Assembly: GCA_016188775.1 (NCBI GenBank)
Contig: JACPHC010000004.1
Location: 12,704 to 76,703 of the forward strand
DNA from: Parcubacteria group bacterium
GTDB taxonomy: Bacteria > Patescibacteriota > Minisyncoccia > JACPHC01
Length of the DNA: 64,000 nucleotides
Direction of reading: 5' to 3'
Below, one piece after another: positions 926 through 48,379 of the stretch; the stretch's first letter is position 1, and every line of letters starts with the position of its first letter. Position numbers and translations under genes: made by a program. The notes under the pieces are model-generated. The model was not told the DNA's origin and searched no databases. It saw only the letters and a program-made list of their open reading frames with translations.

Positions 926-1002
926 TGTCATTGCGAGCCGAAGGCGAAGCAATCTCAATCGTTTAGAGATTGCTTCGGCGATTTCATCGCCTCGCAATGA
1001 CA
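926..1002. repeat. MITE-like foldback repeat, copy 1 (termini TGTCATTGCGAG / CTCGCAATGACA, inner GAAGCAATCTC / GAGATTGCTTC)
   Basis: Nested inverted repeats read directly. Same element recurs at 14680-14758, 22058-22142, 38011-38099 and 48288-48379. Confidence 0.8.
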
Positions 1003-6711: not shown

Positions 6712-6807
6712 ATTTTCTAAATTTAGATTTAAAATTTAAGAATCAATCGACCTCATTCTTAAATCATAAATCTTTTTAATTAATAATTATTTTTTCGACT
6801 TTTTTTA

Positions 6808-6841
6808 CCCGCCAAAATTTTTTTATAAAAATTTTGGCGGG
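6808..6841. promoter_or_regulatory. palindromic hairpin/operator-like site CCCGCCAAAATTTTT-TTAT-AAAAATTTTGGCGGG
   Basis: Perfect 15-bp arms. A near-identical site is at 15882-15913 and a half-site at 16021-16034. Confidence 0.4.
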
Positions 6842-6845
6842 TGAA

Positions 6846-8740: not shown

Positions 8741-8784
8741 AAACTTACATATTTACGGACGATCGTCCGTAAATATGTAAGTTT
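8741..8784. promoter_or_regulatory. perfect 44-bp palindrome centred on CGATCG (AAACTTACATATTTACGGACGATCGTCCGTAAATATGTAAGTTT)
   Basis: Reverse-complement identity checked by eye. Shares the core TTACGGACGATCGTCCGTAA with 40198-40243. Confidence 0.7.
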
Positions 8785-8794
8785 AATAAATTTT

Positions 8795-9355
8795 TTATTG
8801 AAGATGAAATCTATTTTTTAAATCCAAATCGATGTCTGTTTCTTTAACAATTAAAAATCTTGCATAAGCTCTCAAATTAAAAAATTCAATCACGAAATCA
8901 ATTTCATTTTTGCATTCATAAGGATAAATAAAAACGCTTTTTTGCAAAGGATAAAAACCTAATTGTTTTAATTGAAAAGTTAAAGCATTTCTTTCGCGTC
9001 TTAAACGTTCGGGAATATCAAAAATTACCACTCTCCATAATTTATCCCAATGGGGTGGTTTTTTAATTCGCATTGTTTTTAAATTATATCGCAAAAATTC
9101 TTTTTTGCCTTCTCTGTTTAAAACTAAACTAACTGTTCCGTCTTTATTTTCTTGATAATTAATTAATTTTGACCGATAAAGACGATGAATAGATTCTCTC
9201 AGACTACGATAATTAATTTTCTGCCATTCTTTGATAGCGGATTTTAAAATTCGAAAATAAGAATCTGGTCTGCGCGTTAAAGATAAAGCAACTCCCGTGC
9301 CTAACAAAATAATAATTTTTCTAGCCACCGGTCCCAATCTTTTTTTATTTGACAT
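8795..9355 (-). CDS. winged-helix plus Cas2-fold domain protein (PaaX-like putative regulator)
   Basis: The C-terminal segment VVIFDIPERLRRERNALTFQLKQLGFYPLQKSVFIYP resembles the Cas2/PaaX-C core. There is no cas1 and no repeat array nearby. Confidence 0.5.
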   Translation of the reverse strand: MSNKKRLGPVARKIIILLGTGVALSLTRRPDSYFRILKSAIKEWQKINYRSLRESIHRLYRSKLINYQENKDGTVSLVLNREGKKEFLRYNLKTMRIKKPPHWDKLWRVVIFDIPERLRRERNALTFQLKQLGFYPLQKSVFIYPYECKNEIDFVIEFFNLRAYARFLIVKETDIDLDLKNRFHLQ

Positions 9356-9560: not shown

Positions 9561-10049
9561 TCAATCTGAAATTCGACCGCTGGTAGTGACGGTGATCAAT
9601 TTGGAAAAAGTCGGCGAGCTTTTGATGTTGATTTCCAAAGAATGGCTGACGGAGCCGGAAGGAACGCCGGTTAATCTTTCAAAAGTGATGTCCAAAGGCG
9701 AACCCAGTCCCCCGCCATCGAAAGTTTTATATTCAACGCGATTGGATAAAAATAAGGTTTCTTTAACCGCGCCGGAAGCGAAAGTCGTCAGCGTGGAAAA
9801 TAAGCGGTAGCCGGCTAAAGAATTATCAAATCTTACTCCCCAGCGAGACCCGTCTTCGCCGGATAAGGCTCGAGCCTGAGCTTCTCTTAATTTTCCGACA
9901 ATTTCACGCGAGGCGATGTCCAAAATCGCGCCTCGCTGGAAAGACTGGTAAGCCGCGGTTAAAGCGACGGATAAAATGGCAATAATGCCCATAACGAGAA
10001 TGAGTTCCAAAAGAGTGAAACCGGTCAATTTTTTTTTCTTAAATGGCAT
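9561..10049 (-). CDS. type IV pilin-like protein (prepilin-type N-terminus)
   Basis: N-terminus MPFKKKKLTG|FTLLELILVMGIIAIL is a canonical class III signal with Glu at +5. Confidence 0.75.
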   Translation of the reverse strand: MPFKKKKLTGFTLLELILVMGIIAILSVALTAAYQSFQRGAILDIASREIVGKLREAQARALSGEDGSRWGVRFDNSLAGYRLFSTLTTFASGAVKETLFLSNRVEYKTFDGGGLGSPLDITFERLTGVPSGSVSHSLEINIKSSPTFSKLITVTTSGRISD

Positions 10050-10231: not shown

Positions 10232-11446
10232 TTATCTAAACGATCCGACTAATTGATAAATCGGAACGATAATGGAAACGGCGATGCCGCCGATGATAAG
10301 ACCAATAACCAGAAGCAAAACCGGCTCAATCAGAGAAACTAAATTTTTGAGAGAATTATCAACTTCTTCTTCGTAAAATTCCGATAAGCTGACCAGTATT
10401 TCTTCAAGATTGCCGGACCGCTCTCCCACGCCGATCATATTGGTGACCAAATGCGGAAAAAGTTTCGGTTCTCTTTTCAACATCGCGGCCAGAGTGATGC
10501 CTCGAGCCACGCCGGATTCGGCTGACTTAAGATAGGCTGATTTATAGAGATCATTGCCGATGGTATCGGCCGTGATCCGCAAAGAATCCAAAAACGGCAC
10601 CGCGCTTTTTAAAAGCGTGGCCAGAACCCGGGTGGAACGAGCCAGGGACACTTTTTTTATCAAATCGCTCGCAACCGGCAAATGAAAAAAGATTTTTTCG
10701 TACAAAAATTTTTTCCCGGCCGAGGAACGCCAAACCAGAACAGCGGAAAAAATTAAACCAATAACAAAAATCGCTATATATAAAGGATAAGCGGTGATAA
10801 AATCGCTGATGTTTACCAAGACTTGAGTAATGGCCGGAAGTTTGACCCCGGTTTCTTTAAAAGTTTTCGTCAGACGCGGCAAAACAACCGTAAACATCAA
10901 AGTTAAAACTCCAAAAGCCATAATGATAAGAATGGAGGGATAAATCATCGCCGATTTGACCCGGCGTTTCAGGGAGTATTCGGATTTCATTTGAGAAGAA
11001 AGTTCGGCAAAAACCTGCTCTAAATTTCCGGAAGCCTCGCCGGCTTTAACGAGACTGACAAATAAAAGAGGAAAATCTTTCGGAAATTTTTCAAAAGCCG
11101 CTGACAAAGGCTGGCCGCGCTGGAGCTCATACCGAATCTGGGAGAAAATTTTGGCCAGTATCGGTTTTTCCGCGTCCGCGATCAAAATATCAATCGCTTC
11201 GATAATCGGAATGCCGGCGCGAAGCATCGTGGCCAGATGTCTGGTAAAAACGATTTTATCGTCAATGGAAAGCCGGCCAAAAATAAAACCGGCAAAAGGA
11301 ATTTTTGCCTCGTTTTTTGGCGCCACTCGAATCGCTTGCCAGCCTTGACGTTTAATGAAATCCAGAACCGCCTCTTCGCTCGCGGCTTCAATTTCTCCTT
11401 CTTGTAAAATTCCTTGGGAATCGGACGCGGTATAATTATAAATCAT
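10232..11446 (-). CDS. pilC: type IV pilus / type II secretion platform protein (GspF/PilC family)
   Basis: 404 aa with three TM regions and two GspF-like repeats (e.g. LATMLRAGIPIIEAI, LSLIEPVLLLVIGLIIGGIAV). Confidence 0.88.
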   Translation of the reverse strand: MIYNYTASDSQGILQEGEIEAASEEAVLDFIKRQGWQAIRVAPKNEAKIPFAGFIFGRLSIDDKIVFTRHLATMLRAGIPIIEAIDILIADAEKPILAKIFSQIRYELQRGQPLSAAFEKFPKDFPLLFVSLVKAGEASGNLEQVFAELSSQMKSEYSLKRRVKSAMIYPSILIIMAFGVLTLMFTVVLPRLTKTFKETGVKLPAITQVLVNISDFITAYPLYIAIFVIGLIFSAVLVWRSSAGKKFLYEKIFFHLPVASDLIKKVSLARSTRVLATLLKSAVPFLDSLRITADTIGNDLYKSAYLKSAESGVARGITLAAMLKREPKLFPHLVTNMIGVGERSGNLEEILVSLSEFYEEEVDNSLKNLVSLIEPVLLLVIGLIIGGIAVSIIVPIYQLVGSFR

Positions 11447-11452
11447 AAAACA

Positions 11453-13162
11453 TTATTCTCTAATGACGCGTAAAATTTCTTCAATGGTCGTAATGCCGGC
11501 CTCGACTTTAGCCAGTCCGTCTTCAAACATTGTCATCATCCCCTCTTTCCTCGCTTGTTTTCTTAAATCTTCAATAGTCCATTCGCTGTTGATGATTTCG
11601 CGCATGGCCGGAGTAACGGTTAACACTTCAAAAATAGCGACTTGCCCTTGATAGCCGACGGAACATTCGGGACAAGTGCCGGATTTATAAAGCAACTCCG
11701 GAATCGCGTAAGTAATTTTTTCTTTGGGATACAAAATGGCAAACTGGTCTTGAATCGCTTTTTTTATCTCGGGCGAGACGGGATAAGATTCAATGCAAGA
11801 TTGGCAAATTTTCCGCACTAAACGTTGGGCGATAATTAAATTAAGCGTCGTTGACATTAAAAATTTCGGCACGCCGATATCGGTCAGACGCGGAATGGAG
11901 GTAATGGCGTCATTGGTGTGCAAAGAAGAAAGAAGAAGATGACCGGTCAGGGCCGCGTTAACGGCGATCTCGGCGGTTTCCAAATCGCGAATTTCACCGA
12001 CCATCAGAATATCCGGGTTTTGCCTGAGAAGCGAACGCAGACCGGTGGCGAAAGTAATGCCGGCTTTAACGTTCACTTGCGTCTGGTTGAGCCGGGGAAC
12101 GTCGTATTCAATCGGGTCTTCAACGGTGGAAATATTAACTCCGGGTTTATTTAAAAGATGCAAAATGGCGTAAAGCGTGGTTGTCTTGCCGGAGCCGGTC
12201 GGACCGGTGGAAAGAATCATTCCGTGCGATTTAGTGATGGCGTCTTTAACAATCGCTAAATTCTTACCCACCATCCCCAACTCTTCCAAGTTAAGAGGCC
12301 GGGCCGCTCCTCTCAATAATCTCAAGACCGATTTTTCGCCGTGAAAAGTCGGCATTACCGAAACCCGAACGTCAACGGCTTCATCCTCAAATTTAAACTT
12401 GAAACGGCCGTCTTGAGGTTTAAAATGTTCGTCAATGGCGAGATTGGACAGAATTTTAATCCGGGCGGTTAAAGCCGGATGAAGTTCTTTGGGCAATTCG
12501 GTGATATCTTTTAAAATACCGTCAATCCGATAACGAACAATTAGTTTTTCGGCCGTGCGTTCAAAATGAATATCCGAAGCCCGGCTCAAAACCGCGAATT
12601 CAATAATGGAATCAATGATGGTGACAATGGGAATGTTTTCCGCCAAACGTTCCAGTGTCGCCGTTTCCGGAGAAGCGATTAAAGCTTTTTTAATATTTTC
12701 TTCAATAATTATTTCAAATTGCTTGGAAATATCGCCTTTATAAAAACGAAGAGCGTGAATAATATCCGCGGCCGTGGCCAAATAAACTTCAATTTCAGAG
12801 CCGGTTTTAAAACGGAGATATTCAATGAGTTTGATATCGCCCGGATCCTGCATCGCCACTTTCAGTTTAGATTCCGATTGGTCAAAAACGGCGATGCCGC
12901 GAGTTTTGGCGAAATCTTCCGGAATCATCCGAAGAACTTCCATATTGATTGTTCTTCGGGTCAGTCCGGCCATTGGAACACCGTAAAATGTCGAAAGCAA
13001 TTCAAAAAAATAAGACTCGGGAACGTCGCCACGCCCGATGAGAACATTTTCGATTTTTTGACCCGCCCGATGAGCTTCGGTTTTGGCCGACTCAAACTCT
13101 TTGACGGACACCAAACCGCTTTCCACGATCATTTTCCTTAATTTTCGCTCTGGGATAGGCAA
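11453..13162 (-). CDS. pilB: type IV pilus assembly ATPase (GspE/PilB family)
   Basis: Walker A GPTGSGKTT, Walker B/Asp box ILMVGEIRD, and a C-terminal tetra-Cys motif CQSC...CPEC. Confidence 0.92.
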   Translation of the reverse strand: MPIPERKLRKMIVESGLVSVKEFESAKTEAHRAGQKIENVLIGRGDVPESYFFELLSTFYGVPMAGLTRRTINMEVLRMIPEDFAKTRGIAVFDQSESKLKVAMQDPGDIKLIEYLRFKTGSEIEVYLATAADIIHALRFYKGDISKQFEIIIEENIKKALIASPETATLERLAENIPIVTIIDSIIEFAVLSRASDIHFERTAEKLIVRYRIDGILKDITELPKELHPALTARIKILSNLAIDEHFKPQDGRFKFKFEDEAVDVRVSVMPTFHGEKSVLRLLRGAARPLNLEELGMVGKNLAIVKDAITKSHGMILSTGPTGSGKTTTLYAILHLLNKPGVNISTVEDPIEYDVPRLNQTQVNVKAGITFATGLRSLLRQNPDILMVGEIRDLETAEIAVNAALTGHLLLSSLHTNDAITSIPRLTDIGVPKFLMSTTLNLIIAQRLVRKICQSCIESYPVSPEIKKAIQDQFAILYPKEKITYAIPELLYKSGTCPECSVGYQGQVAIFEVLTVTPAMREIINSEWTIEDLRKQARKEGMMTMFEDGLAKVEAGITTIEEILRVIRE

Positions 13163-14679: not shown

Positions 14680-14758
14680 TGTCATTGCGAGGCGATGAAA
14701 TCGCCGAAGCAATCTCTCTCTTGGATTTTGAGATTGCTTCGTTTCGCTCGCAATGACA
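14680..14758. repeat. MITE-like foldback repeat, copy 2 (inverted relative to copy 1)
   Basis: TGTCATTGCGAGGCGATGAAATCGCCGAAGCAATCTC...GAGATTGCTTCG...CTCGCAATGACA. Confidence 0.8.
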
Positions 14759-14845
14759 AAATATAAAAATTGGAGTTGAAGTGAACAAAACAAAACCGCC
14801 ACCCGTAGGGTGGCGGTTTTTAAAAATCATTGGGAATTATAGGAA

Positions 14846-15547
14846 TTAATAGCCATTACTCGTCACAATTAATAATTCAGTGCCTTTTTCAAAAATCAAA
14901 TCATTATTTCCGCCGTCATTCTTTTCTTTATCATCCGCGCCACCGTTGGAAAAAGCCGAGCTTTCAAGATTGGCTCCCAATTCAAATGTTGTATCAACAG
15001 CGTCGCAAACATAAGAGTAAAAATGATTATTAGTCGGACCTTCGCCAAGACTATTGATAACAGGAGCAGGATCGCGCGGAAGATTTGAAATTGGCGAACC
15101 GCCTGTAATGTCGCTAAACCTTACTGGCAACCAGCCCGTACCATCAACTACGCTGCTTGCGGAGCCGCTAGTCGCCCAAGCCGTAGTTTCATAAGTTTTC
15201 CCGCCTCCGGTTTGCGCTCCTGTTCCGTAAGATCTAGTGCCGGCGGCGATTCCTGTTTGATCGTAAAAAACAGTTGGATCTGGCGTAGCAGCAGACGAAT
15301 TAACACATCGATTATTATCAATAGTGTCAGTGGAAAGATCCGGCGCGCTAACCGTTGTCAAATAAAGACCTAAAGCGGTCTTTAAAACATCAAGGTCGGA
15401 AATTCTCTGAACGTCCCGGGCTTTTTTCAATGTTTCCGCCGGGTTCAAAACCAAAACCACCACCACGGACAAAATCGCCAAAATAGCGATAACGATCAAA
15501 AGTTCAAGCAGAGTAAAACCTTTTTTGCTAAACATTTTATTAGTCAT
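14846..15547 (-). CDS. type IV pilin-like protein (prepilin-type N-terminus)
   Basis: MTNKMFSKKG|FTLLELLIVIAILAILSVVVV. Confidence 0.75.
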   Translation of the reverse strand: MTNKMFSKKGFTLLELLIVIAILAILSVVVVLVLNPAETLKKARDVQRISDLDVLKTALGLYLTTVSAPDLSTDTIDNNRCVNSSAATPDPTVFYDQTGIAAGTRSYGTGAQTGGGKTYETTAWATSGSASSVVDGTGWLPVRFSDITGGSPISNLPRDPAPVINSLGEGPTNNHFYSYVCDAVDTTFELGANLESSAFSNGGADDKEKNDGGNNDLIFEKGTELLIVTSNGY

Positions 15548-20491: not shown

Positions 20492-20959
20492 TTATTGAAC
20501 TTCAATAACCCCGGATTTATAAATTGTCATTGTTTTGGAAAGTCCGGTTTGAGTGTTTTGGATAATCAAAGTATTTTGGCCCGAAGAGAAAGATTCGACT
20601 TCTCCGATTAATTTAGTGAAAATAATTTGCGACGATGGAAAGGTTACGCTGGAAAACGTATAACCCGAAGAAAGAGTGGAAACAAAATTAGTTCCCGCGC
20701 CGGCCGAATACGGCGCCTGAAATAGAGTGAAAGAAGTCGAGTCAAAAAAAACGCCGAATTTGGCGGCTGTGGAACCGGATTCGGCAAAGCCGGTCATTGA
20801 TTTGACCCGGGCTTCAAAAAACGTGTTTTTAATTTGAGCGACCGCGGCCGAAAGTTCCGTGTCAATAATGGGTTTGACCGCGTTTAAACTTATCAAGGCG
20901 GCCAAAATCGCGAAAATCGCGACGCTGATGGAAATTTCAATGAGAGTAAAGCCCCGCAT
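20492..20959 (-). CDS. type IV pilin-like protein
   Basis: MRG|FTLIEISISVAIFAILAALISL. Confidence 0.7.
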   Translation of the reverse strand: MRGFTLIEISISVAIFAILAALISLNAVKPIIDTELSAAVAQIKNTFFEARVKSMTGFAESGSTAAKFGVFFDSTSFTLFQAPYSAGAGTNFVSTLSSGYTFSSVTFPSSQIIFTKLIGEVESFSSGQNTLIIQNTQTGLSKTMTIYKSGVIEVQ

Positions 20960-20960
20960 T

Positions 20961-22019
20961 TTATCTGGCTCCGATTCGGCCGATTAATTGATAAATCGGA
21001 GCGATAATCGTAATCACTATCAAAGCCACTAAAGTTCCGACGACAACAATCAAAAGAGGCTCAATCAAAGTTGATAAAGTCTTCAAAATGTTGGCGGCTT
21101 TTCTTTCATAAAAAACGGCTAAATCAATCAGCACTTGATCCAGATTGCCGGATTTCCAGCCCACGGCCACGGCTGAACGGTACATTTGAGGAAAAAGATC
21201 GGGCCAAGCGCCTAAAGCCATGTCCAAAGAAACGCCCTTGGAAACATCGTCTTTAATAACCGGCATAGCGGACCGATAAACCGGGTCTTCAAAAACATTG
21301 GCGGCCAGCTCCAGCGACTCCAGTATCGGAATGCCGGAGGCAAAAAGCAAACTCAAGGTTCGGGCGTATTTGGCCAGATTAACGGCTTGAACCAATTTGT
21401 TGATTCCGGGCAGGCGTTTAAAAAAAGAAAATATAACGAGACGAACCGGTTTTAAAACCCGCCAGACAAAAACAAAAACGAGAACAATAAAAATTAAAAA
21501 TAAAATGGAACTTAAAATATTCCGGCTCAAAATCGCCGAGATGGAAAATAAAATCTGGGTGTAGACAGGAACTTTTAATTGAAGTTTGGCGAAAACGGAC
21601 GCCACCCGAGGAATGACAAAAAGAAAAATGAAAAATAAAATAACGATGGCCAGTCCCAAAACTAAAAGAGGGTAAAAGGCCGCGGCTTGAAGATTTTTTT
21701 TGATATTGTAGGAATTTTCCAGCTCTTCTGCCAAAAAACTGATGTTGCGATCCAAGGTGCCGCTTTGCTCGCCGGCTCGAATCGCGGCCGTGAAAACTTT
21801 GTCAAAATACCGAGGGTGATCTTCAAAACTTTCAGTCAAGCTTTTGCCGCTGGAAATGGAAACGAGCATCGCCTGAAAAACTTTTTTAGCTTCCCGGCTT
21901 TCCGCTTCCACTGATAAAATTTCAAAAATCTCGATTAAATTAAGTCCGGATTTCAAAAGCAGATGAAAATTCTTTAAAAAATTTATCCGCTCAAGTAGTG
22001 AAAATTTTTTAGTAAACAT
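20961..22019 (-). CDS. pilC: second GspF/PilC-family platform protein
   Basis: 352 aa with a TM pattern and GspF-like repeats (LSTLIEPLLIVVVGTLVALIVITIIAPIYQL). Confidence 0.85.
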   Translation of the reverse strand: MFTKKFSLLERINFLKNFHLLLKSGLNLIEIFEILSVEAESREAKKVFQAMLVSISSGKSLTESFEDHPRYFDKVFTAAIRAGEQSGTLDRNISFLAEELENSYNIKKNLQAAAFYPLLVLGLAIVILFFIFLFVIPRVASVFAKLQLKVPVYTQILFSISAILSRNILSSILFLIFIVLVFVFVWRVLKPVRLVIFSFFKRLPGINKLVQAVNLAKYARTLSLLFASGIPILESLELAANVFEDPVYRSAMPVIKDDVSKGVSLDMALGAWPDLFPQMYRSAVAVGWKSGNLDQVLIDLAVFYERKAANILKTLSTLIEPLLIVVVGTLVALIVITIIAPIYQLIGRIGAR

Positions 22020-22057
22020 TTTTCTCTATAATAAAACAAAATAGAAATTTCAGCAGT

Positions 22058-22142
22058 TGTCATTGCGAGCGACCGAAGGGAGCGCGGCAATCTCAAGCAT
22101 TTAACAAATGATTGCTTCGTCGCTTACGCTCTTCGCAATGAC
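22058..22142. repeat. MITE-like foldback repeat, copy 3 (degenerate), followed by extra direct repeats to ~22230
   Basis: TGTCATTGCGAGCGACCGAAGGGAGCGCGGCAATCTC...GATTGCTTCG...CTTCGCAATGAC. Then ACGGACGCGAATGTT appears twice and CGAAGTTCAACTTCG is palindromic. Confidence 0.7.
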
Positions 22143-22245
22143 GGACGCGAATGTTCAATTTTACGAAGTTCAACTTCGCAAGGTTTCGCTTCGTAAGGTT
22201 TCACGGACGCGAATGTTGAAATTTTTATTTCATTATCTTTTAAAT

Positions 22246-23910
22246 TTATAAAACTCTTAAAACTTCTTCAATCGTTGTCAGGCCCGCGTCCACTTTTTCA
22301 AGGCCGTCCTCAAAAAGCGTCGTCATTCCTTCTTTTTTCGCTTGCGTCAAAATTTTTTGATCCGCCTCTCCTCTGAAAATCATTTGCCGGATAGCGTCGC
22401 TGAATTTCAAAACTTCAAAAATACCGATGCGGCCCTGAAAACCCGAACCGCCGCATTGAGGGCAACCCGTGCCGTGAAAAAACTGCCGGCCTCCAAGACT
22501 GACGCCGAATTCTTTTTCCGCCGCCTCTAAAACCAAAGGCGACGGCTGGTAAGAGCCGATGCAAACCAAACACGGCCTCCGAACCAAACGTTGGGCAATG
22601 GCCGCGTTCAAAGTTGAACTCAAAAGAAAGGGCCGAATTTTCAAATCCAGCAGTCTTGTTAAAGACCCAATAGCGTCTTGAGTGTGCAAAGTGGATAGAA
22701 CCAACTGGCCGGTCAGGGCGGCGTGAATGACAATTTCAGCCGTTTCTTCATCCCTGATTTCTCCGACCATAACTATATTGGGGTCGTGGCGCAAAATCGA
22801 GCGCAGACCAACGGCAAAATCAATGCCGGTTTTAGGATTAACCTGAATCTGATTGAGACGGGGAATGGTGTATTCAATCGGGTCCTCAATAGTCTCAATG
22901 CTGACTCGGGGATTATTCAAAACATTAATCATATTATAAAGAGTCGTTGTCTTGCCGGAGCCGGTTGGGCCGACCACTAAAATCAAACCGAATGATTTTT
23001 TGAGTTCTTCTTGAACAATCTCCAGTTGTCGGCCGGAAAGTCCGGTTTCTTCCAAATTCTTCGGCCGGCCTAATTCCGAAAGCACTCTCGTTTCAATGCT
23101 CTCCCCTTCTTCGGTCGGCAAAATGGAAACCCTGACGGAAACTTTTTCTTTTTGAAAAGAAAAAGTGAAACGGCCGTCTTGAGGCTGATAATGTTCGTCT
23201 ATTTTCAAATTGGCCAAAATTTTAATTCGGGCCAACAAAGGGTCGTAAATTTTGGGCGGCAGTTTCAAAACGTCAAAAAGCGCGCCTTCAATTCTTAACC
23301 GGACGATAATCTCTCCCAAAAATTTATCAATATGGATATCGGAGGCGCCTTTGGCGGCGGCGTAGGTTAAAATCAAATCCAGGATTTTCACCACCGGCGC
23401 TTCTTTGGCCCCTTGTTCCCCGGTTGCCTTGACCGCGGCGATTGATTTTTCAATCAGGGACGGAAGCTGTTTTTCAAAATTTTGAAAATAAAGCCCGAGA
23501 GCGTAATTAAAAGAACCTCGGGTCATAAAATAAGAAGTAACTTCGCTTCTGGTTTTTTTTCTGACCAATTCAATCGCTTCCAAATCTTTCGGATTTTCCA
23601 TTGCCAGAAAAACTTTTTTATCTTCTTTTTTAAAAACAATAATATGATATTCTTCGGCGATTTCTTGCGGGACTAAATTTAGGATTTCCAGGGGTATTTG
23701 AGTTCTTTTTAAATCAATATAAGGAACTTTAAAATACCAGCCGGCCACTTCGCCGAAATATTTTTCCGCGATTATTCCTTTTTCAATTAAAACATCCAAA
23801 AGATTTTTTCCCAGCGTGCCCGCGGTTTCTTCGGCCAAACGCATTTCTTCTTCCGGAACGATTCCTTGGCCGATAAGAATTTGTTTTATGTCATCATTTG
23901 AAAGAATCAT
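22246..23910 (-). CDS. pilB: second GspE/PilB-family pilus assembly ATPase
   Basis: Walker A GPTGSGKTT, MVGEIRD box, tetra-Cys CLVC...CPQC. Confidence 0.92.
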   Translation of the reverse strand: MILSNDDIKQILIGQGIVPEEEMRLAEETAGTLGKNLLDVLIEKGIIAEKYFGEVAGWYFKVPYIDLKRTQIPLEILNLVPQEIAEEYHIIVFKKEDKKVFLAMENPKDLEAIELVRKKTRSEVTSYFMTRGSFNYALGLYFQNFEKQLPSLIEKSIAAVKATGEQGAKEAPVVKILDLILTYAAAKGASDIHIDKFLGEIIVRLRIEGALFDVLKLPPKIYDPLLARIKILANLKIDEHYQPQDGRFTFSFQKEKVSVRVSILPTEEGESIETRVLSELGRPKNLEETGLSGRQLEIVQEELKKSFGLILVVGPTGSGKTTTLYNMINVLNNPRVSIETIEDPIEYTIPRLNQIQVNPKTGIDFAVGLRSILRHDPNIVMVGEIRDEETAEIVIHAALTGQLVLSTLHTQDAIGSLTRLLDLKIRPFLLSSTLNAAIAQRLVRRPCLVCIGSYQPSPLVLEAAEKEFGVSLGGRQFFHGTGCPQCGGSGFQGRIGIFEVLKFSDAIRQMIFRGEADQKILTQAKKEGMTTLFEDGLEKVDAGLTTIEEVLRVL

Positions 23911-24022: not shown

Positions 24023-24463
24023 ATGAAAAATAAAGGTTTTACCTTGATCGAAGTTTTGGTCGTTGTCGGCATGCTCGCCATTTTAATGGCGATTGTGATC
24101 ATTGCCATTAACCCGCCCAGGCAATTTTCTTTGGCCAACAATACCAAGCGCCGTTCCGATATTCTGGCTATCCTAAACGCGGTCCATCAATACGCGGCTG
24201 ACAATAAAGGAACTTTGCCGTCAGTCATTACCACCACTTCCACGGATATGGGAACCGGCTCCGGCGAAATCAATATCTGCACGTATTTAGTTCCCAATTA
24301 TTTGGCCGAGATGCCCTTTGACCCAAAAGCCTCCGGCGCTAATTATTCCAGTTGCACCAGCTACGAAACGAAATATCAAATCAAAAAAGATTCCACCACC
24401 AGCCGAATAACCGTTGCCGCTTCCTCGGCCGAACTGAGCGAAACGATTTCAATCACCAGATAA
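24023..24463 (+). CDS. type IV major pilin-like protein (PilA-like)
   Basis: MKNKG|FTLIEVLVVVGMLAILMAIVIIAI is a canonical prepilin N-terminus. 146 aa. Confidence 0.8.
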   Translation: MKNKGFTLIEVLVVVGMLAILMAIVIIAINPPRQFSLANNTKRRSDILAILNAVHQYAADNKGTLPSVITTTSTDMGTGSGEINICTYLVPNYLAEMPFDPKASGANYSSCTSYETKYQIKKDSTTSRITVAASSAELSETISITR

Positions 24464-34069: not shown

Positions 34070-35525
34070 CGCAGTCCGCAGAAGACGAGCGAAGGCGGGG
34101 GAATAAAATCAACGGAAGATGACGACCGACAAGTAATGTCTATTGAAGCGCAACTTTTTGAACTGCGAGAATACGCGCGTAAAGAAAATCTTGAAATTCT
34201 GGAGGAATTTCAAGAGTCGAAAAGCGCAAAGACACCCGGACGAGAAATCTTCGGCGAGATGATGGCGAAAATAGAAAGTGATGGAGATTTTGGCATACTC
34301 GCGTGGCACCCCGATCGCCTTGCGCGTAATAGTATTGACGGAGGACGCATTATCTACACCGTAGATCAGAAGAAAATAGTGTCTTTGCGTTTTCCGACAT
34401 TTTGGTTTGAACCAACCCCGCAGGGGCTCTTTATGTTGCAAGTGGCGTTCGGATGCGTCGTAAAGAATGGCTGGGACTTGCGCCTTTCGGATACCAAAAC
34501 AATCCACTTATTCGTAATATTGAACCGCACCCGACCGAAGCGCGTATTGTTAAATTAGCGTTTGAGGAATATGCGAAAGGCGTACACTCTTTTGTTTCTC
34601 TCGCGCAATTTTTGGCGGACCTCGGCGTTGTCTCAAAAAATAGAATGCCACTTGCCAAAGCTTCCATCAAACGACTTTTAACGAACAGAGCATATCTCGG
34701 CTTTTTGAAACACAAAGGAGAATGGTTTGATGGAAACTTTGAACCAATTCTTTCTCCCGCATTGTTTGAAGCCGTGCAGAAAATTTTGAAAACGAAAGAG
34801 CGGCCGCGCCACCGCCGCGCTCGGCACGATTTCCCATTTACCGGATTATTCCGGTGTGCCGAGTGCGGCTCAATGATTAGCGCGCAATGGGCGGTCAATC
34901 GCTGGGGTACAAAATATCGCTACTATCGCTGTTCAAAAAAGCGCGGCCGCTGTCCGCAACCATATATTCAAGAGGCGGAGTTGGCGCGGCAAATCAAGGC
35001 ACGGCTTCAAACAATCTCGCTTTGCGACAATCTCACCGATTGGATGTTGGAAAAAGTAAAAAGTTGGGAGCACGAGGAAATCGGAGCGTCGCAAAGCGAG
35101 GTTCAAAATCTTTCCGAAAATATTAAAACGGCAGAAGCGAGGATGGAAAAGCTGGTTTCCACTTATCTTGATGGCGACATTCCCAAACAAACTTATCTCA
35201 AAAAGAAAGATGAAATTTTACTCGCTTCTGCCGTTTTGGAGCAAAGGAAAAAAGATTTTGAAAACGGGAGAAAAAATTGGGTCGAACCCCTGCGGGAATG
35301 GATTTTAGATACGAAACAGGCCGATTTTTTGAGCACATCGAATGATTTTCACCAAATCAAAACATTTGTTCAAAAAATCGGAACGAACCCTCGGGTTCGT
35401 AACAAATCCGCCGTCTTTGATTTTTGCCCAGCCAGCCAGTTCGCCGCGAAGCGGCGAGGGATTTTGCGGAGCGCGGCCGCCTCGCGGCCGCGCGGAGCAA
35501 CCCTTTCAAATCGTGAAGTTTCTAT
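34070..35525 (+). pseudogene. large serine recombinase: frameshifted, without an in-frame start codon, and with a degenerate catalytic motif
   Basis: Resolvase-domain remnant (IKSTEDDDRQVMSIEAQ...DRLARN) with no start codon upstream. Frame shift near 34440-34460. Recombinase plus zinc-ribbon domain (FRCAECGSMIS...YYRCSKKRGRCPQP) in the second frame. The track ORF runs on through the tRNA only because no stop codon intervenes. Confidence 0.7.
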
Positions 35526-35615
35526 TGGCGGAGGCGGTGAGATTCGAACTCACGATGCCCTTTCGGACATACTTGCTTTCCAAGCAAGCGCACTAGGCCG
35601 CTATGCGACGCCTCC
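35526..35615 (-). tRNA. tRNA-Ser (anticodon GGA), class II with long variable arm, CCA encoded
   Basis: rc sequence GGAGGCG-TC-GCATAGCGGCCTAGTGCG-CTTGC-TTGGAAA-GCAAG-TATGTCCGAAAGGGCATC-GTGAG-TTCGAAT-CTCAC-CGCCTCC-G-CCA folds as a cloverleaf. Confidence 0.85.
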
Positions 35616-35715
35616 AATAGATTGGATTATATAGTTTAAAATCGGGAAAATCAAACGATATCAGTATTACATATTGATATTTTTTTTGTTATAATAAATA
35701 TAATCAATAAAAAAC

Positions 35716-37929
35716 ATGAAAATATTTAGATTTTCCCTGATTTTTCTTTTTCTTGTTTTTGGGTTTTTTATTTTTGCCAAAATTTCTTTCGCTCAAAGCG
35801 TAACGGTCAATCAGCCCAACGGCGGCGAATGTCTAAAAACTAATCAAGCTTATTCTATTACCTGGACGAGAGTTGGCGGCGATCATGTCGCTCTTTATTA
35901 TCGTTCTGACGGCCAACAACCGACTCATCTTGACAACAGCTTGATTGATCATGGAATGACCGGCTCTTCTTTTAATTGGACCCCTTCGGCGGGCGAAGCC
36001 TCGGAAACAGGCAGAATCTGGGCGGAAATTCACGACGCGGATCATAATTCTTTAAATGTCTGGGATCAATCTAACGCTAATTTTTCAGTAAGGTCGAGTT
36101 GTCCGACTATCGGTTTATCCCCAGCGAGTTTTAGTTTTTCCGGTTCAGTCGGCGGATCAAATCCTCCCTCCCAAACTTTGACCGTCACCAATACCGGCGC
36201 CAGCGGCTCTTCTTTAAGTTGGACTGGAACCAGTAATCAATCCTGGCTATCCATCTCTCCGACCTCCGGCGGTCCGCTTGGTTCAGGCGCTTCAAATTCG
36301 GTAAGCGTGAGCGTAAATATCGCTGGCTTAACCGAAGGCACTTACAATGGAACAATAACGATTTCGGGCATATCAACCAATAAATCGCAAACAGTGTCAG
36401 TCGCTTTAACTATTAATCCGGCTGGCCCCACTATTTCCCTCACTCCTTCCAGTTTTAATTTCACGGCAACAACAGGCGCCAATCCGGCCAGTCAAACTTT
36501 AACAATTACCAATGTCGGTCCATCCGGATCCAATCTCAACTGGTCCGCTTCCGACAATGCCGCCTGGCTGACTCTTTCCCCGACTTCCGGCGGGCCTCTG
36601 GGTTCCGGAGCTTCAAGTTCGCCAGTGACGAGTATTGACACAGCCGGACTGGCAGCCGGAACTTATAACGGGACAATAACGATTTCTGACGCCAGCGCGA
36701 CTAACAGCCCGCAAACAGCCGGCGCGACATTAACTCTTAACGCGGCTTCATCCGGCTCATCCTCAATAACAACCGGACCGGCTGTTATTTCCAGTTCAAT
36801 AAAAACAATAATATCGCTGACCGGCGCGGAAATTACCTGGCAAACAGATACGGAATCGTACAGCCAAATTGAATACGGCCCAACGATTAATTACGAATTC
36901 CAAGGCCAGCTAGACGCGGTTTTGAGCCTTACTCATAAAATGATTTTGGAAAATTTGCTTTCGGAAACAACTTATCATTTTAGAATTGCCAGCGGCCGAT
37001 TTTTGCAGCAATCCATCAAATCAGCCGATTTTATTTTTACCACTTTGAGCTTACCCAAGTCGGAATCAGCGCCCGTCATTCTGCCGGAAGCAGAACAGCC
37101 AAAAGAAGAACCTCCTTCCCTCCCTTCAATCGTCATCCCGCCGCCAATAGTAAATTCAATTTTTAATCGGCCGGGCAACAAAAAAATTGAACTTTCTTGG
37201 ACTAATCCCGACCCTGAAAAATTTAAAGAAATAAAAATTATAAGAAAAGAGGATAAATTTCCTTCCAACCCGTCTGACGGAGAAACAGTATTTCAAGGAA
37301 TGGCCAATTTATTCCTTGACGAGTCGGTGAAAAACGGGGTCCGTTATTTTTACTCCATTTTCACCTTTGACGAAGCTGGAAACTTTTCCGAAGCGGCTTT
37401 CACTTCTTCCAGGCCTCGGCCCGACCCGCCAGAAACGCCTCTGTCTTTCACGGCTCTTTCCAGGCAAAGCAAAAACGCGGAAAAACTGAACGATTATTTG
37501 CGAGAAATCGGCTATCTGGAAAAAAGTTCGCCGATCTTTGACGAAAAAACGAAAGAGGCTCTGAAAACTTTTCAAAAAGATAAGTTCATCAGGCCAACCG
37601 GACGAGCCGATTTAAGAACTCTTCATATCATTAATCAAAAACCCATTGAAGAATTAGGAGGAAAAAAAATTAGCGTTGAAGAATATAAAGAAATAACAAG
37701 ACACTTTTTTAATAAAGATTTTTCTCAAAGCAAACGTTCCCAAGAAGTAAAATTACTGCAAAAATCTTTATATATCCGAGGCTATTACTTTGGCCGATTT
37801 CATAATTTATTCGACGCGCTGACGAAAAAAGCCCTGATAAAATTCCAAAAAGATTTTGATATTCCGGAAGAGTCTGGAAAAGTCGGCCCAAAAACACAAG
37901 ACTTTCTTAATCATTATCCAACTATATAA
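35716..37929 (+). CDS. secreted cell-wall-associated protein: two BACON/Ig-like repeats, an FN3-like domain, two peptidoglycan-binding-like domains
   Basis: Signal-like MKIFRFSLIFLFLVFGFFIFAKISFA. Duplicated LSWTGTSNQSWLSISPTSGGPLGSGAS...GTYNGTITIS segments. PG-binding-like LNDYLREIGYLEKSSPIFDEKTKEALKTFQK and LLQKSLYIRGYYFG...KKALIKFQK. Confidence 0.65.
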   Translation: MKIFRFSLIFLFLVFGFFIFAKISFAQSVTVNQPNGGECLKTNQAYSITWTRVGGDHVALYYRSDGQQPTHLDNSLIDHGMTGSSFNWTPSAGEASETGRIWAEIHDADHNSLNVWDQSNANFSVRSSCPTIGLSPASFSFSGSVGGSNPPSQTLTVTNTGASGSSLSWTGTSNQSWLSISPTSGGPLGSGASNSVSVSVNIAGLTEGTYNGTITISGISTNKSQTVSVALTINPAGPTISLTPSSFNFTATTGANPASQTLTITNVGPSGSNLNWSASDNAAWLTLSPTSGGPLGSGASSSPVTSIDTAGLAAGTYNGTITISDASATNSPQTAGATLTLNAASSGSSSITTGPAVISSSIKTIISLTGAEITWQTDTESYSQIEYGPTINYEFQGQLDAVLSLTHKMILENLLSETTYHFRIASGRFLQQSIKSADFIFTTLSLPKSESAPVILPEAEQPKEEPPSLPSIVIPPPIVNSIFNRPGNKKIELSWTNPDPEKFKEIKIIRKEDKFPSNPSDGETVFQGMANLFLDESVKNGVRYFYSIFTFDEAGNFSEAAFTSSRPRPDPPETPLSFTALSRQSKNAEKLNDYLREIGYLEKSSPIFDEKTKEALKTFQKDKFIRPTGRADLRTLHIINQKPIEELGGKKISVEEYKEITRHFFNKDFSQSKRSQEVKLLQKSLYIRGYYFGRFHNLFDALTKKALIKFQKDFDIPEESGKVGPKTQDFLNHYPTI

Positions 37930-38010: not shown

Positions 38011-38099
38011 ATTCAATCATTTGTCATTGCGAGAAGCGAAGCGACGAAGCAATCTCTATAATCAGCCAAGAAATGAGATTGCTTCGGCGATTCCATCGC
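38011..38099. repeat. MITE-like foldback repeat, copy 4
   Basis: TGTCATTGCGAGAAGCGAAGCGACGAAGCAATCTC...GAGATTGCTTCGGCGATTCCATCGCCTCGCAATGAC. Confidence 0.8.
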
Positions 38100-38157
38100 C
38101 TCGCAATGACGATTGTTTCGCAATATTTCAAAAATCCGTTTCCGAAGCTTTAACTAT

Positions 38158-43878: not shown

Positions 43879-45823
<1,945 letters not shown>

Positions 45824-45926
45824 ATTTTAAATTTCAAAATTTTGAAATAATTTCTTAATTAGCAATCACGACCATTGAGCGCTAATTTGATTATAATATA
45901 GTATTATATTCAGACAAAAATTATTG

Positions 45927-47087
45927 TCAAGATAGAAGAGATTTATAAATCCGCAATAACTTTTTCGCCTGCGACCGGTCGGAAAATTTTTGAGCGATTT
46001 TAAAAGAATTGCCTGAAAAACGTTTTTGAATATTTGGATCGCGTAAAATTTTTAATATTTTATCGGCAAATAATTTAGCCGAGGAGCGGGGCGAGATCAA
46101 GAATCCGTTTTGATTATCAATAACCGCCCCGGAAAAAGCGGCGTCTTTCAAAGCGACTATTGGCAGCGAACTGCCGATCGCTTCAATTATGACTATCCCT
46201 TGAGTCTCTGTCAGCGAAGAAAAAACAAAAACATCCGCCAGCTGATAATAAAAAGGCAATGTTTCGTGGGAAATAGCGCCGGTAAAAATAATTGATTCGC
46301 TAATTTTTAATTTAGCCGCTAAAACTTTAAGCTCGCCCAAATAAGGACCGTCGCCAATTAAAATAAACTTGACGGCATTTCTCTTTTTCTTGATTTCTCC
46401 AAAAGCTCGGATCAAAAAATCGATATTTTTCTCTTTACCCATTCTTCCCACGAAAATTAATGCTTGATCTTTCGGCGACACGCTCAATTTATTTTTTAAT
46501 GTTTTAGCGCGGCTTAAAGATTTTCGGGTTTTTTTAAATATTTCCAAATCGACTCCGGTCGGCAATATGTAAATCGGTTTTTTAACGCCGTAGTCCTTAA
46601 GCTGTTTTTTTATTTTCAAAGAAGGAGCTAAAATGGCATCCGAGGCGTTTGAAAACCAACCGCTCCACCATCTGGCCAGCGACGGCAAAATAAATTTTTC
46701 CTTCATATACGCTTTGGCGTATTCCGGATAATCCGTATGGTGAGTATAAATTAAAGGAATATTTTGCCGCGCTGAAATAAATTTTCCCAAAATTCCAAGA
46801 CTAAACGGAGTATGGGCGTGAACAACGTCTAATTTAAAATCAATAATTTTTTTCAAATGCCCGGCGGCGGCCAAAGGAAAAGCAAAACGCATTTCCGGCT
46901 TTTTAATAATCCTGACGGATTTCAGTCTAAACACTCCGGGGTTCTTGTCTTTATAGCCGGGATGATAAGGGGCGTAAATAAAAACCTGATGCCCCATTTT
47001 TTCCAAACTTTTCCTGAAAGTCTCAATTGAAATTTCAACGCCGTGGACAACCGGCAAATAAGTATCTGTAAAAAATCCTATTTTCAT
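45927..47087 (-). CDS. glycosyltransferase family 4 (GT-B fold)
   Basis: MKIGFFTDTYLPVVHGVEISIE N-terminus. C-terminal E-x7-E region FVFSSLTETQGIVIIEAIGSSLPIV. Confidence 0.85.
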   Translation of the reverse strand: MKIGFFTDTYLPVVHGVEISIETFRKSLEKMGHQVFIYAPYHPGYKDKNPGVFRLKSVRIIKKPEMRFAFPLAAAGHLKKIIDFKLDVVHAHTPFSLGILGKFISARQNIPLIYTHHTDYPEYAKAYMKEKFILPSLARWWSGWFSNASDAILAPSLKIKKQLKDYGVKKPIYILPTGVDLEIFKKTRKSLSRAKTLKNKLSVSPKDQALIFVGRMGKEKNIDFLIRAFGEIKKKRNAVKFILIGDGPYLGELKVLAAKLKISESIIFTGAISHETLPFYYQLADVFVFSSLTETQGIVIIEAIGSSLPIVALKDAAFSGAVIDNQNGFLISPRSSAKLFADKILKILRDPNIQKRFSGNSFKIAQKFSDRSQAKKLLRIYKSLLS

Positions 47088-48287: not shown

Positions 48288-48379
48288 CGTCATTGCGAGA
48301 AATGAAGCGAAGTGTAATAACGAAGCAATCCCAAAGATTGCCGCGTCGCTCTCATTTTCATTCGCTCCTCGCAATGACA
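48288..48379. repeat. MITE-like foldback repeat, copy 5 (degenerate), inside the rpsF-ssb-rpsR cluster
   Basis: CGTCATTGCGAG...GAAGCAATCCC...GATTGCCGCG...CTCGCAATGACA. Confidence 0.7.

Follow-up and report, generated by a model that had tools for sequence, protein, structure and literature searches.

The 64-kb stretch of DNA analyzed here (contig JACPHC010000004.1; by 'the window' we mean the whole of this stretch) comes from the metagenome-assembled genome (MAG) of a Parcubacteria group bacterium, and its gene content fits such a member of the candidate phyla radiation (CPR, or Patescibacteria), with type IV pilus genes, large surface proteins, rpoB/rpoC, groESL, and ftsK. Scattered between the genes is a palindromic foldback repeat of 77–92 bp, which is the subject of this study. 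Searching the window for the 12-bp terminal sequence of this repeat, TGTCATTGCGAG, with at most one mismatch returned nine matches, compared to 0.2 expected, and none of 100 shuffled sequences reached nine. The nine matches paired up in inverted orientation at five loci, with the tenth arm (22132–22143) carrying two mismatches, and a looser search of the window for arms or inner repeats found no further copy and no lone arm. The five foldback repeats are confirmed as real copies, well above chance (Table 1); a first-pass annotation, made from the sequence alone, had counted exactly five, and an inverted TGTCATTGCGAG pair was indeed present at each locus that it had listed. Its coordinates held for copies 1, 2, 3, and 5 (with the end of copy 3 refined to 22143), whereas those for copy 4, 38011–38099, had to be shifted by ~11 nucleotides (nt). 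Copy 2 has the opposite orientation to copies 1 and 4, as had been described, and the inner inverted pair that the annotation had assigned to the family, GAAGCAATCTC/GAGATTGCTTC, matches exactly in copies 1, 2, and 4 but is degenerate in copies 3 and 5.

Table 1. Positions, parts, and surroundings of the palindromic repeat in the window and in a distantly related metagenome-assembled genome (MAG). Each arm consists of box A, a mini-hairpin X, and box B; primes mark the second arm. ORF, open reading frame; aa, amino acids; + and −, strand.
Element	Span	First arm	Spacer	Second arm	Context
Copy 1	926–1002 (77 bp)	box A TGTCATTGCGAG 926–937; X CCGAAGG 938–944; box B CGAAGCAATCTC 945–956	957–965	box B′ 966–977; X′ GCGATTTCATCGC 978–990; box A′ CTCGCAATGACA 991–1002	18 nt past stop (1021) of 1896-aa ORF (−); 167 nt ahead of start (758) of next − ORF
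Copy 2 (inverted relative to copies 1 and 4)	14680–14758 (79 bp)	box A 14680–14691; X GCGATGAAATCGC 14692–14704; box B 14705–14716	14717–14729	box B′ 14730–14741; X′ TTTCG 14742–14746; box A′ 14747–14758	87 nt past stop of pilin-like ORF (14846–15547, −); just beyond separate canonical terminator-like hairpin 14792–14820
Copy 3 (degenerate)	22058–22143 (86 bp)	box A 22058–22069; X CGACCGAAGGGAG 22070–22082; box B variant CGCGGCAATCTC 22083–22094	22095–22109	box B′ GATTGCTTCG 22110–22119; X′ 22120–22131; box A′ TTCGCAATGACG 22132–22143	between PilB-like ATPase gene (22246–23910, −) and PilC-like gene (20961–22019, −); 38 nt ahead of pilC start
Copy 4	38022–38111 (90 bp)	box A 38022–38033; X AAGCGAAGCGA 38034–38044; box B 38045–38056	38057–38074	box B′ 38075–38086; X′ GCGATTCCATCGC 38087–38099; box A′ CTCGCAATGACG 38100–38111	92 nt past stop of 737-aa PG_binding/BACON ORF (35716–37929, +)
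Copy 5 (degenerate)	48288–48379 (92 bp)	box A CGTCATTGCGAG 48288–48299; X 48300–48320; box B CGAAGCAATCCC 48321–48332	AAA 48333–48335	box B′ GATTGCCGCG 48336–48345; X′ 48346–48367; box A′ 48368–48379	within rpsF-ssb-rpsR gene row; 21 nt past ssb stop (48266); 44 nt ahead of rpsR start (48424)
Two elements of the MAG locus L252	10479–10589 and 11465–11600				one in the ssb-rpsR spacer, the other right after a canonical terminator downstream of efp

A sixth copy (TTGTCATTGCGAGGCAATGAAATCGCCGAAGCAATCTC...) lies ~710 bp 5′ of the window start, at 1643–1721 of a Logan contig (L247, whose positions 1–1721 correspond to about −787 to 933 of the window); this contig starts inside copy 1 and ends inside the sixth copy, and the stretch between the two carries a 195-amino-acid open reading frame (ORF) and an NYN-domain gene. 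The breaking of short-read unitig contigs at the element is what one would cite in support of the copies being assembly or chimera artefacts of one repeated locus, a possibility that the annotation itself had raised. However, flanks and flanking genes are unique at every copy, the sequence of copy 5 is identical across three independent Logan assemblies, and the element also occurs in complete isolate genomes and plasmids; with a sixth copy outside the window as well, we give the artefact explanation practically no chance. For assembly the repeat is nonetheless a real obstacle, as the Logan contigs ending inside copies attest.

All five window copies are situated between co-directional ORFs, 18–102 nt past a stop codon, and at least two are inside operons, which bears out the earlier statement that every copy is intergenic. 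The peptide that had been noticed in spurious ORFs over several of the repeats, EIASAISSPRND, proved to be one arm in translation: it is the translation of GAGATTGCTTCGGCGATTTCATCGCCTCGCAATGAC, i.e., of the right arm of copy 1 or the reverse strand of copy 2, and copy 4 yields EIASAIPSPRND. In annotation, these 77–92-bp palindromes should be treated as repeats rather than genes, and the small ORFs with EIASAISSPRND-type peptides as spurious.

Each copy is an inverted, tag-outward dimer of a 30–45-nt monomer with the structure (C/T)GTC – ATTGCGAG – X – CG(AA/TG/CG)GCAAT – CCA or CTC, in which X denotes the sequence between two boxes, and in the window copies a spacer of 3–18 nt separates the two arms. 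ATTGC can be read directly in the window copies four times per element, in alternating orientation. We gathered copies from elsewhere with the pattern GTCATTGCGAG-N45–75-TCGCAATGAC, which returned at least 120 loci in species-representative genomes and at least 120 in viral contigs, and for which we estimate fewer than ~10 chance matches in the whole genome collection. Anatomy statistics were drawn from 262 non-redundant copies, tests of the tag and of target duplications from 130 copies, and the neighbor-gene test from 240 loci. The inner GCAAT box was also carried by 93% of the gathered arms. The base ahead of GTCATTGCGAG was C in 84 of 130 copies and T in 39, which gives a tag of CGTC or TGTC (three and seven of the window arms, respectively), and of 485 arms, 260 had CCA as the tail after GCAAT and 98 had CTC; the window copies have CTC or CCC. 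The palindrome ends sharply: only the base adjoining GTC covaries with its partner (79% paired versus 54% expected, z = 10), complementarity ends one base beyond the boxes, and the flanks are random from position 3 outward. Dimers were tag-outward in 246 cases, compared to 7 tag-inward and 10 tandem pairs, a ratio biased upward by the selection of the sample for dimers; another 77 units were apparent singletons, many of them with a degenerate partner. The spacer ends are complementary to each other (CAG..CTG or CTC..GAG).

The sequence X forms a size series that runs from GNA (3 nt) through CGNAG (5), CCGNAGG or GCGNAGC (7), GAGCGNAGCGA (11), and GCGATGAAATCGC or GCCCCGAAGGGGC (13) up to 23 nt. 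The commonest form, found in 176 of 454 arms, is the 5-nt CGNAG, which is not closed directly by the stem. Among X sequences of at least 7 nt there were 148 distinct ones, and X was self-complementary, with 61% of its symmetric positions forming Watson-Crick pairs (versus 26% in shuffled sequences) around central triplets that were mostly GAA, GCA, GGA, or GTA. The two arms of a dimer usually combine a short X with a long one: the length pair (5,11) occurred 53 times and (5,5) 29 times, and (11,11) was outside the 25 commonest pairs. What is constant in the element is thus two sequence boxes, and the only constraint on the variable part in between is that it form a hairpin.

Either strand of the window copies, taken alone, is predicted to form one long hairpin, with folding energies between −22 and −31 kcal/mol and z scores between −4 and −9; in it, box A pairs with box A′ over 12 bp and box B with box B′ over 10–12 bp. 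In copies 1 and 2 the mini-hairpin X projects from the side of this fold, which produces a three- or four-way junction. Folded as DNA, copy 1 reached −28 to −30 kcal/mol (z of −7.9 and −8.6), and the z score of the degenerate copy 3 was about −4.

The two boxes, (C/T)GTCATTGCGAG and CGAAGCAAT, are letter-for-letter identical from the CPR to Bradyrhizobium, Bacteroidota, cyanobacteria, and phages, and at least ten phyla carry them unchanged. Judging from record titles, the source of our taxon assignments, the matches listed include Bradyrhizobium, Sphingomonadales, Rickettsiales, and Micavibrio among the Alphaproteobacteria, Gamma- and Deltaproteobacteria, Mucilaginibacter, Pedobacter, Flavobacterium, and Bacteroidales, Nostoc and Microcoleus, several Patescibacteria, Chloroflexi, Anaerolineae, and Dehalococcoidia, as well as Planctomycetota, Nitrospirota, and Candidatus Moduliflexus. 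In viral contigs the element occurs in phage structural operons, amid connector, terminase, portal, and tail-tube genes. It also occurs, unannotated, on plasmids of Novosphingobium (in at least 40 places on one 1.76-Mb replicon), Methylosinus, Methylocystis, and Aulosira. Among its carriers is N. aromaticivorans DSM 12444, which was part of the 2013 survey of REPs discussed below. A lone monomer with no inverted partner, CGTCATTGCGAGCGTAGCGAAGCAATCCA, is present between two hypothetical phage genes in the Helicobacter canis prophage BK070053.1 (12005–12036, or 1501–1532 of our locus L262), and a single arm can therefore exist alone, here in the Campylobacterota. In searchable literature text, the element sequence and the peptides derived from it matched only chance primers.

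The annotation had suggested that the repeat is a non-autonomous element of the kind known as miniature inverted-repeat transposable elements (MITEs). A classical MITE would be a deletion derivative of an insertion sequence, with its 12-bp termini TGTCATTGCGAG bound by a DDE transposase that moves it by cut-and-paste. Such an origin is in keeping with the sharp ends, the terminal inverted repeats (TG...CA), the small size, the scatter of multiple copies, and the dispersal of whole dimers in the window genome and in Bradyrhizobium, and bacterial MITEs such as Correia, ERIC, RUP, and Nezha share with the element their smallness, their terminal inverted repeats, their intergenic dispersal, and a foldback structure as RNA or DNA. 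However, MITEs have target-site duplications, a parental insertion sequence, and a restriction to certain lineages, none of which was seen for the element in the window or the fetched loci. Direct reading of the five window copies revealed no target-site duplication, nor was there one at any length or offset in the 130 copies from other genomes, where direct repeats of 3–9 nt at the flanks (offsets 0–2) were no commoner than in flank-shuffled controls. Pfam scans of 39 window ORFs (the non-overlapping ones besides those already named), which encode only housekeeping, pilus, and surface proteins, found no transposase, integrase, or HUH domain, and there was no Y1_Tnp-like ORF among them or beside the copies. 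When ORFs within 1.5 kb of the copies in the 240 loci were clustered, no neighbor common to different phyla emerged; large clusters comprised only structural genes of related prophages and one Bradyrhizobium set, and no transposase or nuclease was seen. No full-length insertion sequence with the same termini was present in the window or in the 2.06 Mb of fetched loci. Lone monomers exist, the distance between box A and box B varies from 3 to >20 nt with a hairpin always filling it, which is ill suited to rigid duplex binding, and the boxes are exact across phyla of 35–65% GC, unlike the lineage-bound MITEs. Both checks that had been proposed for a transposon, for target-site duplications and for a cognate transposase, thus came out negative, and we regard an origin as a MITE as very improbable.

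Comparisons between copies and between relatives indicate what is dispersed and how old the copies are likely to be. In Bradyrhizobium, copies from different species have a common spacer, CAGAATCTTTCCGCGG..AGTCTG, and non-homologous flanks; what has been dispersed there is therefore the dimer together with its spacer. Within the window genome, a near-identical arm with X = GCGATGAAATCGC, a variant found nowhere else in our sample, is common to copy 1, copy 2 (reverse strand), copy 4, and the sixth copy; their spacers are related and the X of the other arm differs, so these four descend from one dimer within the lineage. The divergence of the spacer and of one X while all four boxes stay intact points to constraint on the boxes rather than to recent bursts. 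Nor do the window copies demonstrate the current or recent activity that had been suggested for the element: their spacers and one mini-hairpin diverge strongly while the boxes are identical, and the high density on which that suggestion rested does not by itself demonstrate activity.

The presence of the element varies between relatives. The ssb-rpsR spacer that holds copy 5 in the window is also occupied in a Patescibacteria MAG (L252; JAQVNC01, GCA_028703305.1) whose SSB is 58% identical, whereas in L248, from another such MAG (SSB 59% identical), only 5 nt separate ssb from rpsR and the element is absent, and none was found in 20 kb of L248, L250, or L251; the nearest SSB relatives being at most 65% identical, this comparison is one of coarse presence and absence only. 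Similarly, in the phage contig L254 an element at 1385–1468 fills a ~140-nt spacer ahead of the head-tail connector gene, and in L255, L256, and L257 (around 1490–1500; 65–67% identical to L254, and too diverged for insertion boundaries to be drawn) the upstream gene abuts the connector gene and there is no element.

Palindromes of a similar kind have been described. Repetitive extragenic palindromes (REPs) fall into GTAG-tagged and CGTC-tagged superfamilies (Di Nocera, De Gregorio & Rocco, 2013, BMC Genomics 14:522, PMC3733652). According to that paper, CGTC-tagged REPs form the families CGTC-1 to CGTC-4 and include Neisseria dRS3 and Rickettsia RPE-4 and RPE-6. Their unit has a terminal CGTC, often TGTC, a stem of 8–9 bp whose first two pairs are nearly always A-T and T-A, a loop of 4–5 nt (with other lengths in Bradyrhizobium CGTC-1), and a 3-nt unpaired tail fitting CCA. 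Most occur as head-to-head (HH) dimers, with tail-to-tail (TT) dimers rare and head-to-tail (HT) dimers negligible, and the spacer ends are often complementary; we deduced from the dimer peptides in Additional file 3 of the paper that HH means tag-outward. These REPs occupy gaps between ORFs that are unidirectional or convergent, close by the upstream 3′ end, and are described as having no dedicated transposase; their reported range spans Proteobacteria (mainly alpha, including Micavibrio), Chlorobi, Bacteroidetes, Spirochaetes, and Thermotogae, and how they spread is left unexplained (PMC3733652).

Set beside this description, the element has in common with CGTC-tagged REPs the CGTC/TGTC tag, the ATT..AAT stem ends, a GNA-type loop, a CCA-like tail, tag-outward dimers, complementary spacer ends, a position near the upstream stop between unidirectional or convergent ORFs, the lack of a dedicated transposase, and occurrence in several phyla. 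Canonical CGTC-1-like and CGTC-3-like units, for example C/TGTC-ATTCCCGC-GAAA-GCGGGAAT-CCA and CGTC-ATCCCGGA-CTTGA-TCCGGGAT-CCA, co-occur with the ATTGCGAG type in the same loci, sometimes side by side: in five loci (L100, L007, L116, L117, and L154) canonical CGTC REPs such as TGTC-ATTCCTGC-GAAA-GCAGGAAT-CTA were found beside the ATTGCGAG type, and at 2127–2720 of L100 they directly adjoin it in a mixed cluster. The element departs from the published description in having GAG and CGAA, which are not complementary, together with a variable mini-hairpin between its stem halves instead of a 4–5-nt loop, in the strong pairing between its two monomers, by which it folds mainly as a dimer, and in its phylum range, which with Patescibacteria, Chloroflexi, Cyanobacteria, Planctomycetota, Nitrospirota, and phage contigs is wider than the five phyla listed there. 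The typical peptides of the element (VIAS, VIAR, LAMT, ARND, SLRG, and SLRA) are absent from the intragenic REP list of that paper, which is weak evidence that the ATTGCGAG type lies outside the set that Di Nocera et al. assembled.

The layout of the dimer resembles that of REPINs, the hairpin-forming doublets of GTAG REPs that are handled by REP-associated tyrosine transposases (RAYTs) (Bertels & Rainey, 2011, PMC3116915; Nunvar et al., 2010). As in REPINs, two inverted palindromic units make one long hairpin with an unpaired 4-nt outer tag, there is no target duplication, copies are intergenic and number at least in the tens, and it is the doublet as a whole that is dispersed. Unlike in the REPIN/RAYT system, the tag is CGTC or TGTC instead of GTAG, and no RAYT or Y1/HUH gene was found beside any copy or among the scanned window ORFs, which places the element outside that system; moreover, the sequences of GTAG REPs are species-specific, whereas the boxes of the element are identical across phyla. 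On balance, and with moderate confidence, we read the element as a REP-type palindromic repeat, an inverted tag-outward REPIN-like dimer that belongs with, or right beside, the CGTC-tagged REP superfamily, probably within it as a dimer-folding variant. The annotation had offered a REP-like structure as its second possibility, and this was right in kind, in view of the tag, tail, dimer layout, and genomic position that the element has in common with CGTC-tagged REPs. The kind of repeat is already known; new are its occurrence in a CPR genome, where CGTC-type REP dimers are now documented within the core operons ssb-rpsR and pilB-pilC, its occurrence in operons of phages, the wide range of phyla that share identical boxes, and the modular build of the element.

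As a REP-type repeat, the element is most likely a REPIN-like selfish or neutral palindrome spread by an enzyme that recognizes the folded single strand. Copies would be made by a trans-acting enzyme reading this strand, in a manner that may resemble the handling of GTAG REPs and REPINs by RAYTs. Hairpins with C-GNA-G triloops, of the d(GCGAAGC) type, are a classic hyper-stable motif of DNA rather than RNA. A single-stranded DNA intermediate would be favored over recognition of the duplex because GNA-triloop hairpins are hyper-stable in DNA and because the inter-box hairpin stacks the boxes only when folded. With its pair of invariant boxes joined by a GNA hairpin that is hypervariable yet always self-complementary, the element offers a concrete substrate with which to look for the recognizing enzyme. 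That enzyme could conceivably be a universal one of replication, repair, or recombination that acts on folded single-stranded DNA and is present even in ~1-Mb CPR genomes, with the GNA hairpin serving as a structural joint only. Such mobilization of selfish DNA by a host factor would explain the identical boxes across phyla without a linked transposase, and if true it would constitute a class not yet described in bacteria and answer how CGTC REPs spread; we nevertheless consider it clearly unlikely.

Several observations weigh against the element being a CGTC-type REP dimer copied from a folded strand. The monomer stem comprises five Watson-Crick pairs (ATTGC/GCAAT) plus non-canonical pairs, rather than the 8–9 bp of the published CGTC REPs. 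Other units in these loci do have canonical 8-bp stems. The match to that superfamily is one to a text description and not to a family consensus. Mobility is deduced from dispersal only, the relatives compared being too diverged to supply a filled and an empty site. There is no consistent asymmetry between the strands, which fold equally well, and a G-U wobble at the tag pair was found on the sense strand 11 times versus 4, a difference that is not significant. Finally, the box B variants AA, TG, and CG are uncorrelated between arms, and the inner stem is as a result often mismatched, which argues that it is the sequence of each arm, and not the pairing, that is recognized.

Conservation of the boxes in sequence beyond what pairing would demand, the same independence of the box B variants, and the four ATTGC occurrences of alternating orientation could also be accounted for by an array of duplex-DNA binding sites for a host protein, with four ATTGC/GCAAT half-sites forming, for instance, a gyrase or nucleoid target like the E. 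coli REP/BIME; E. coli REPs have been reported to bind gyrase (cited in PMC3733652). Half-site spacing varies widely, however, there is no known candidate protein, self-complementarity, a property relevant only to a single strand, is found in every variable part, and copy number differs greatly among related genomes (the 20-kb regions of L248, L250, and L251 mentioned above having none). We consider a binding array improbable.

The genomic position of the element would also suit a function in RNA. Over the gathered loci, 149 classifiable elements comprised 100 between unidirectional, 33 between convergent, and 16 between divergent genes, compared to background gaps of 545, 172, and 186, respectively (statistics that rest on crude ORF calling), and upstream stops lay at a median distance of 26 nt and downstream starts at one of 48 nt. 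A cis-acting RNA element, namely a hairpin of the 3′ untranslated region or intercistronic space that is selected for mRNA stability, RNase III cutting, or termination and whose spread is secondary, would fit the position just past stops between co-directional or convergent genes, the approximately twofold depletion between divergent genes, the recurrence after major capsid genes in phage operons, the weak G-U bias on the sense strand, and the occupied ssb-rpsR spacer in the L252 MAG. What such an element would not lead one to expect is that both strands fold equally, that the helices are conserved in sequence instead of covarying, that orientation relative to transcription is inconsistent (copies 1 and 2 are opposite within the same transcriptional sense), that GNA triloops stabilize DNA rather than RNA, and that the L248 relative does without an element in its short ssb-rpsR spacer. 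Nor did the copies resemble terminators: a terminator scan, which looks for a GC-rich hairpin followed by a U-tract, called none of the five, no copy has a U-tract, the sole related call was the tip of copy 5 on the antisense strand, and the canonical terminators that precede copy 2 and one L252 copy are separate from the element. Neither in the window nor in twelve loci of other phyla did Rfam 15 match the element at the gathering threshold, and at E values of up to 10 there were chance hairpin-like matches only, such as miRNA precursors and Rhino_CRE (23.5 bits versus a threshold of 45). We judge selection as an RNA element to be unlikely, if still deserving of some weight. Under the preferred reading as a REP-type repeat, the transcribed hairpin may protect upstream mRNA 3′ ends or dampen read-through as a by-product, and an effect at the mRNA level, whether protection of 3′ ends or differing expression of genes within an operon (capsid-connector, ssb-rpsR, or pilB-pilC, for example), could plausibly follow.

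Other known elements were compared and set aside. Integron attC sites offer an analogy of architecture only: they too are imperfect palindromes that act in the folded form of one strand, in which two paired boxes are conserved and the tip and the length vary. The RYYYAAC/GTTRRRY core sites are absent from the element, there are no cassette arrays, and no integrase was found in the scanned window ORFs or as a recurring neighbor. Hammerhead, twister, and other ribozymes gave no Rfam match, and a CRISPR repeat matched at an E value of about 5 only. XerCD/dif, parS, and CIRCE-type regulator sites showed no sequence resemblance, and the element is not gene-specific. The resemblance to domain V of group II introns was confined to one X variant.

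Several further features of the window are independent of the repeat. It contains two paralogous PilB-like/PilC-like pairs, at 10232–13162 and 20961–23910, and at least four ORFs with an N-terminal methylation (pilin) motif (9561–10049, 14846–15547, 20492–20959, and 24023–24463), which is typical CPR type IV pilus content. The only Rfam match in the window was an 87-nt tRNA at 35529–35615 (−; 55.6 bits), which overlaps the mechanically called ORF 34453–35634, so that this ORF is probably no gene over that stretch. A 19-pair AT-rich palindrome with GC clamps (TTTACCCGCCAAAATTTTT..AAAAATTTTGGCGGGTGAA) lies at 6804–6845, ~90 nt upstream of the start (6711, −) of the 1896-amino-acid ORF. A second, perfect palindrome of 44 bp at 8741–8784, with 20-bp arms (AAACTTACATATTTACGGAC GATC GTCCGTAAATATGTAAGTTT), is positioned just downstream of a gene for a PaaX-like regulator (8795–9355, −) and may be a bidirectional terminator or an operator. 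At 45903–45930 (−), upstream of groES-groEL (45823..43879, −), there is a perfect sigma-70 consensus, with TTGACA and TATAAT separated by 16 nt.

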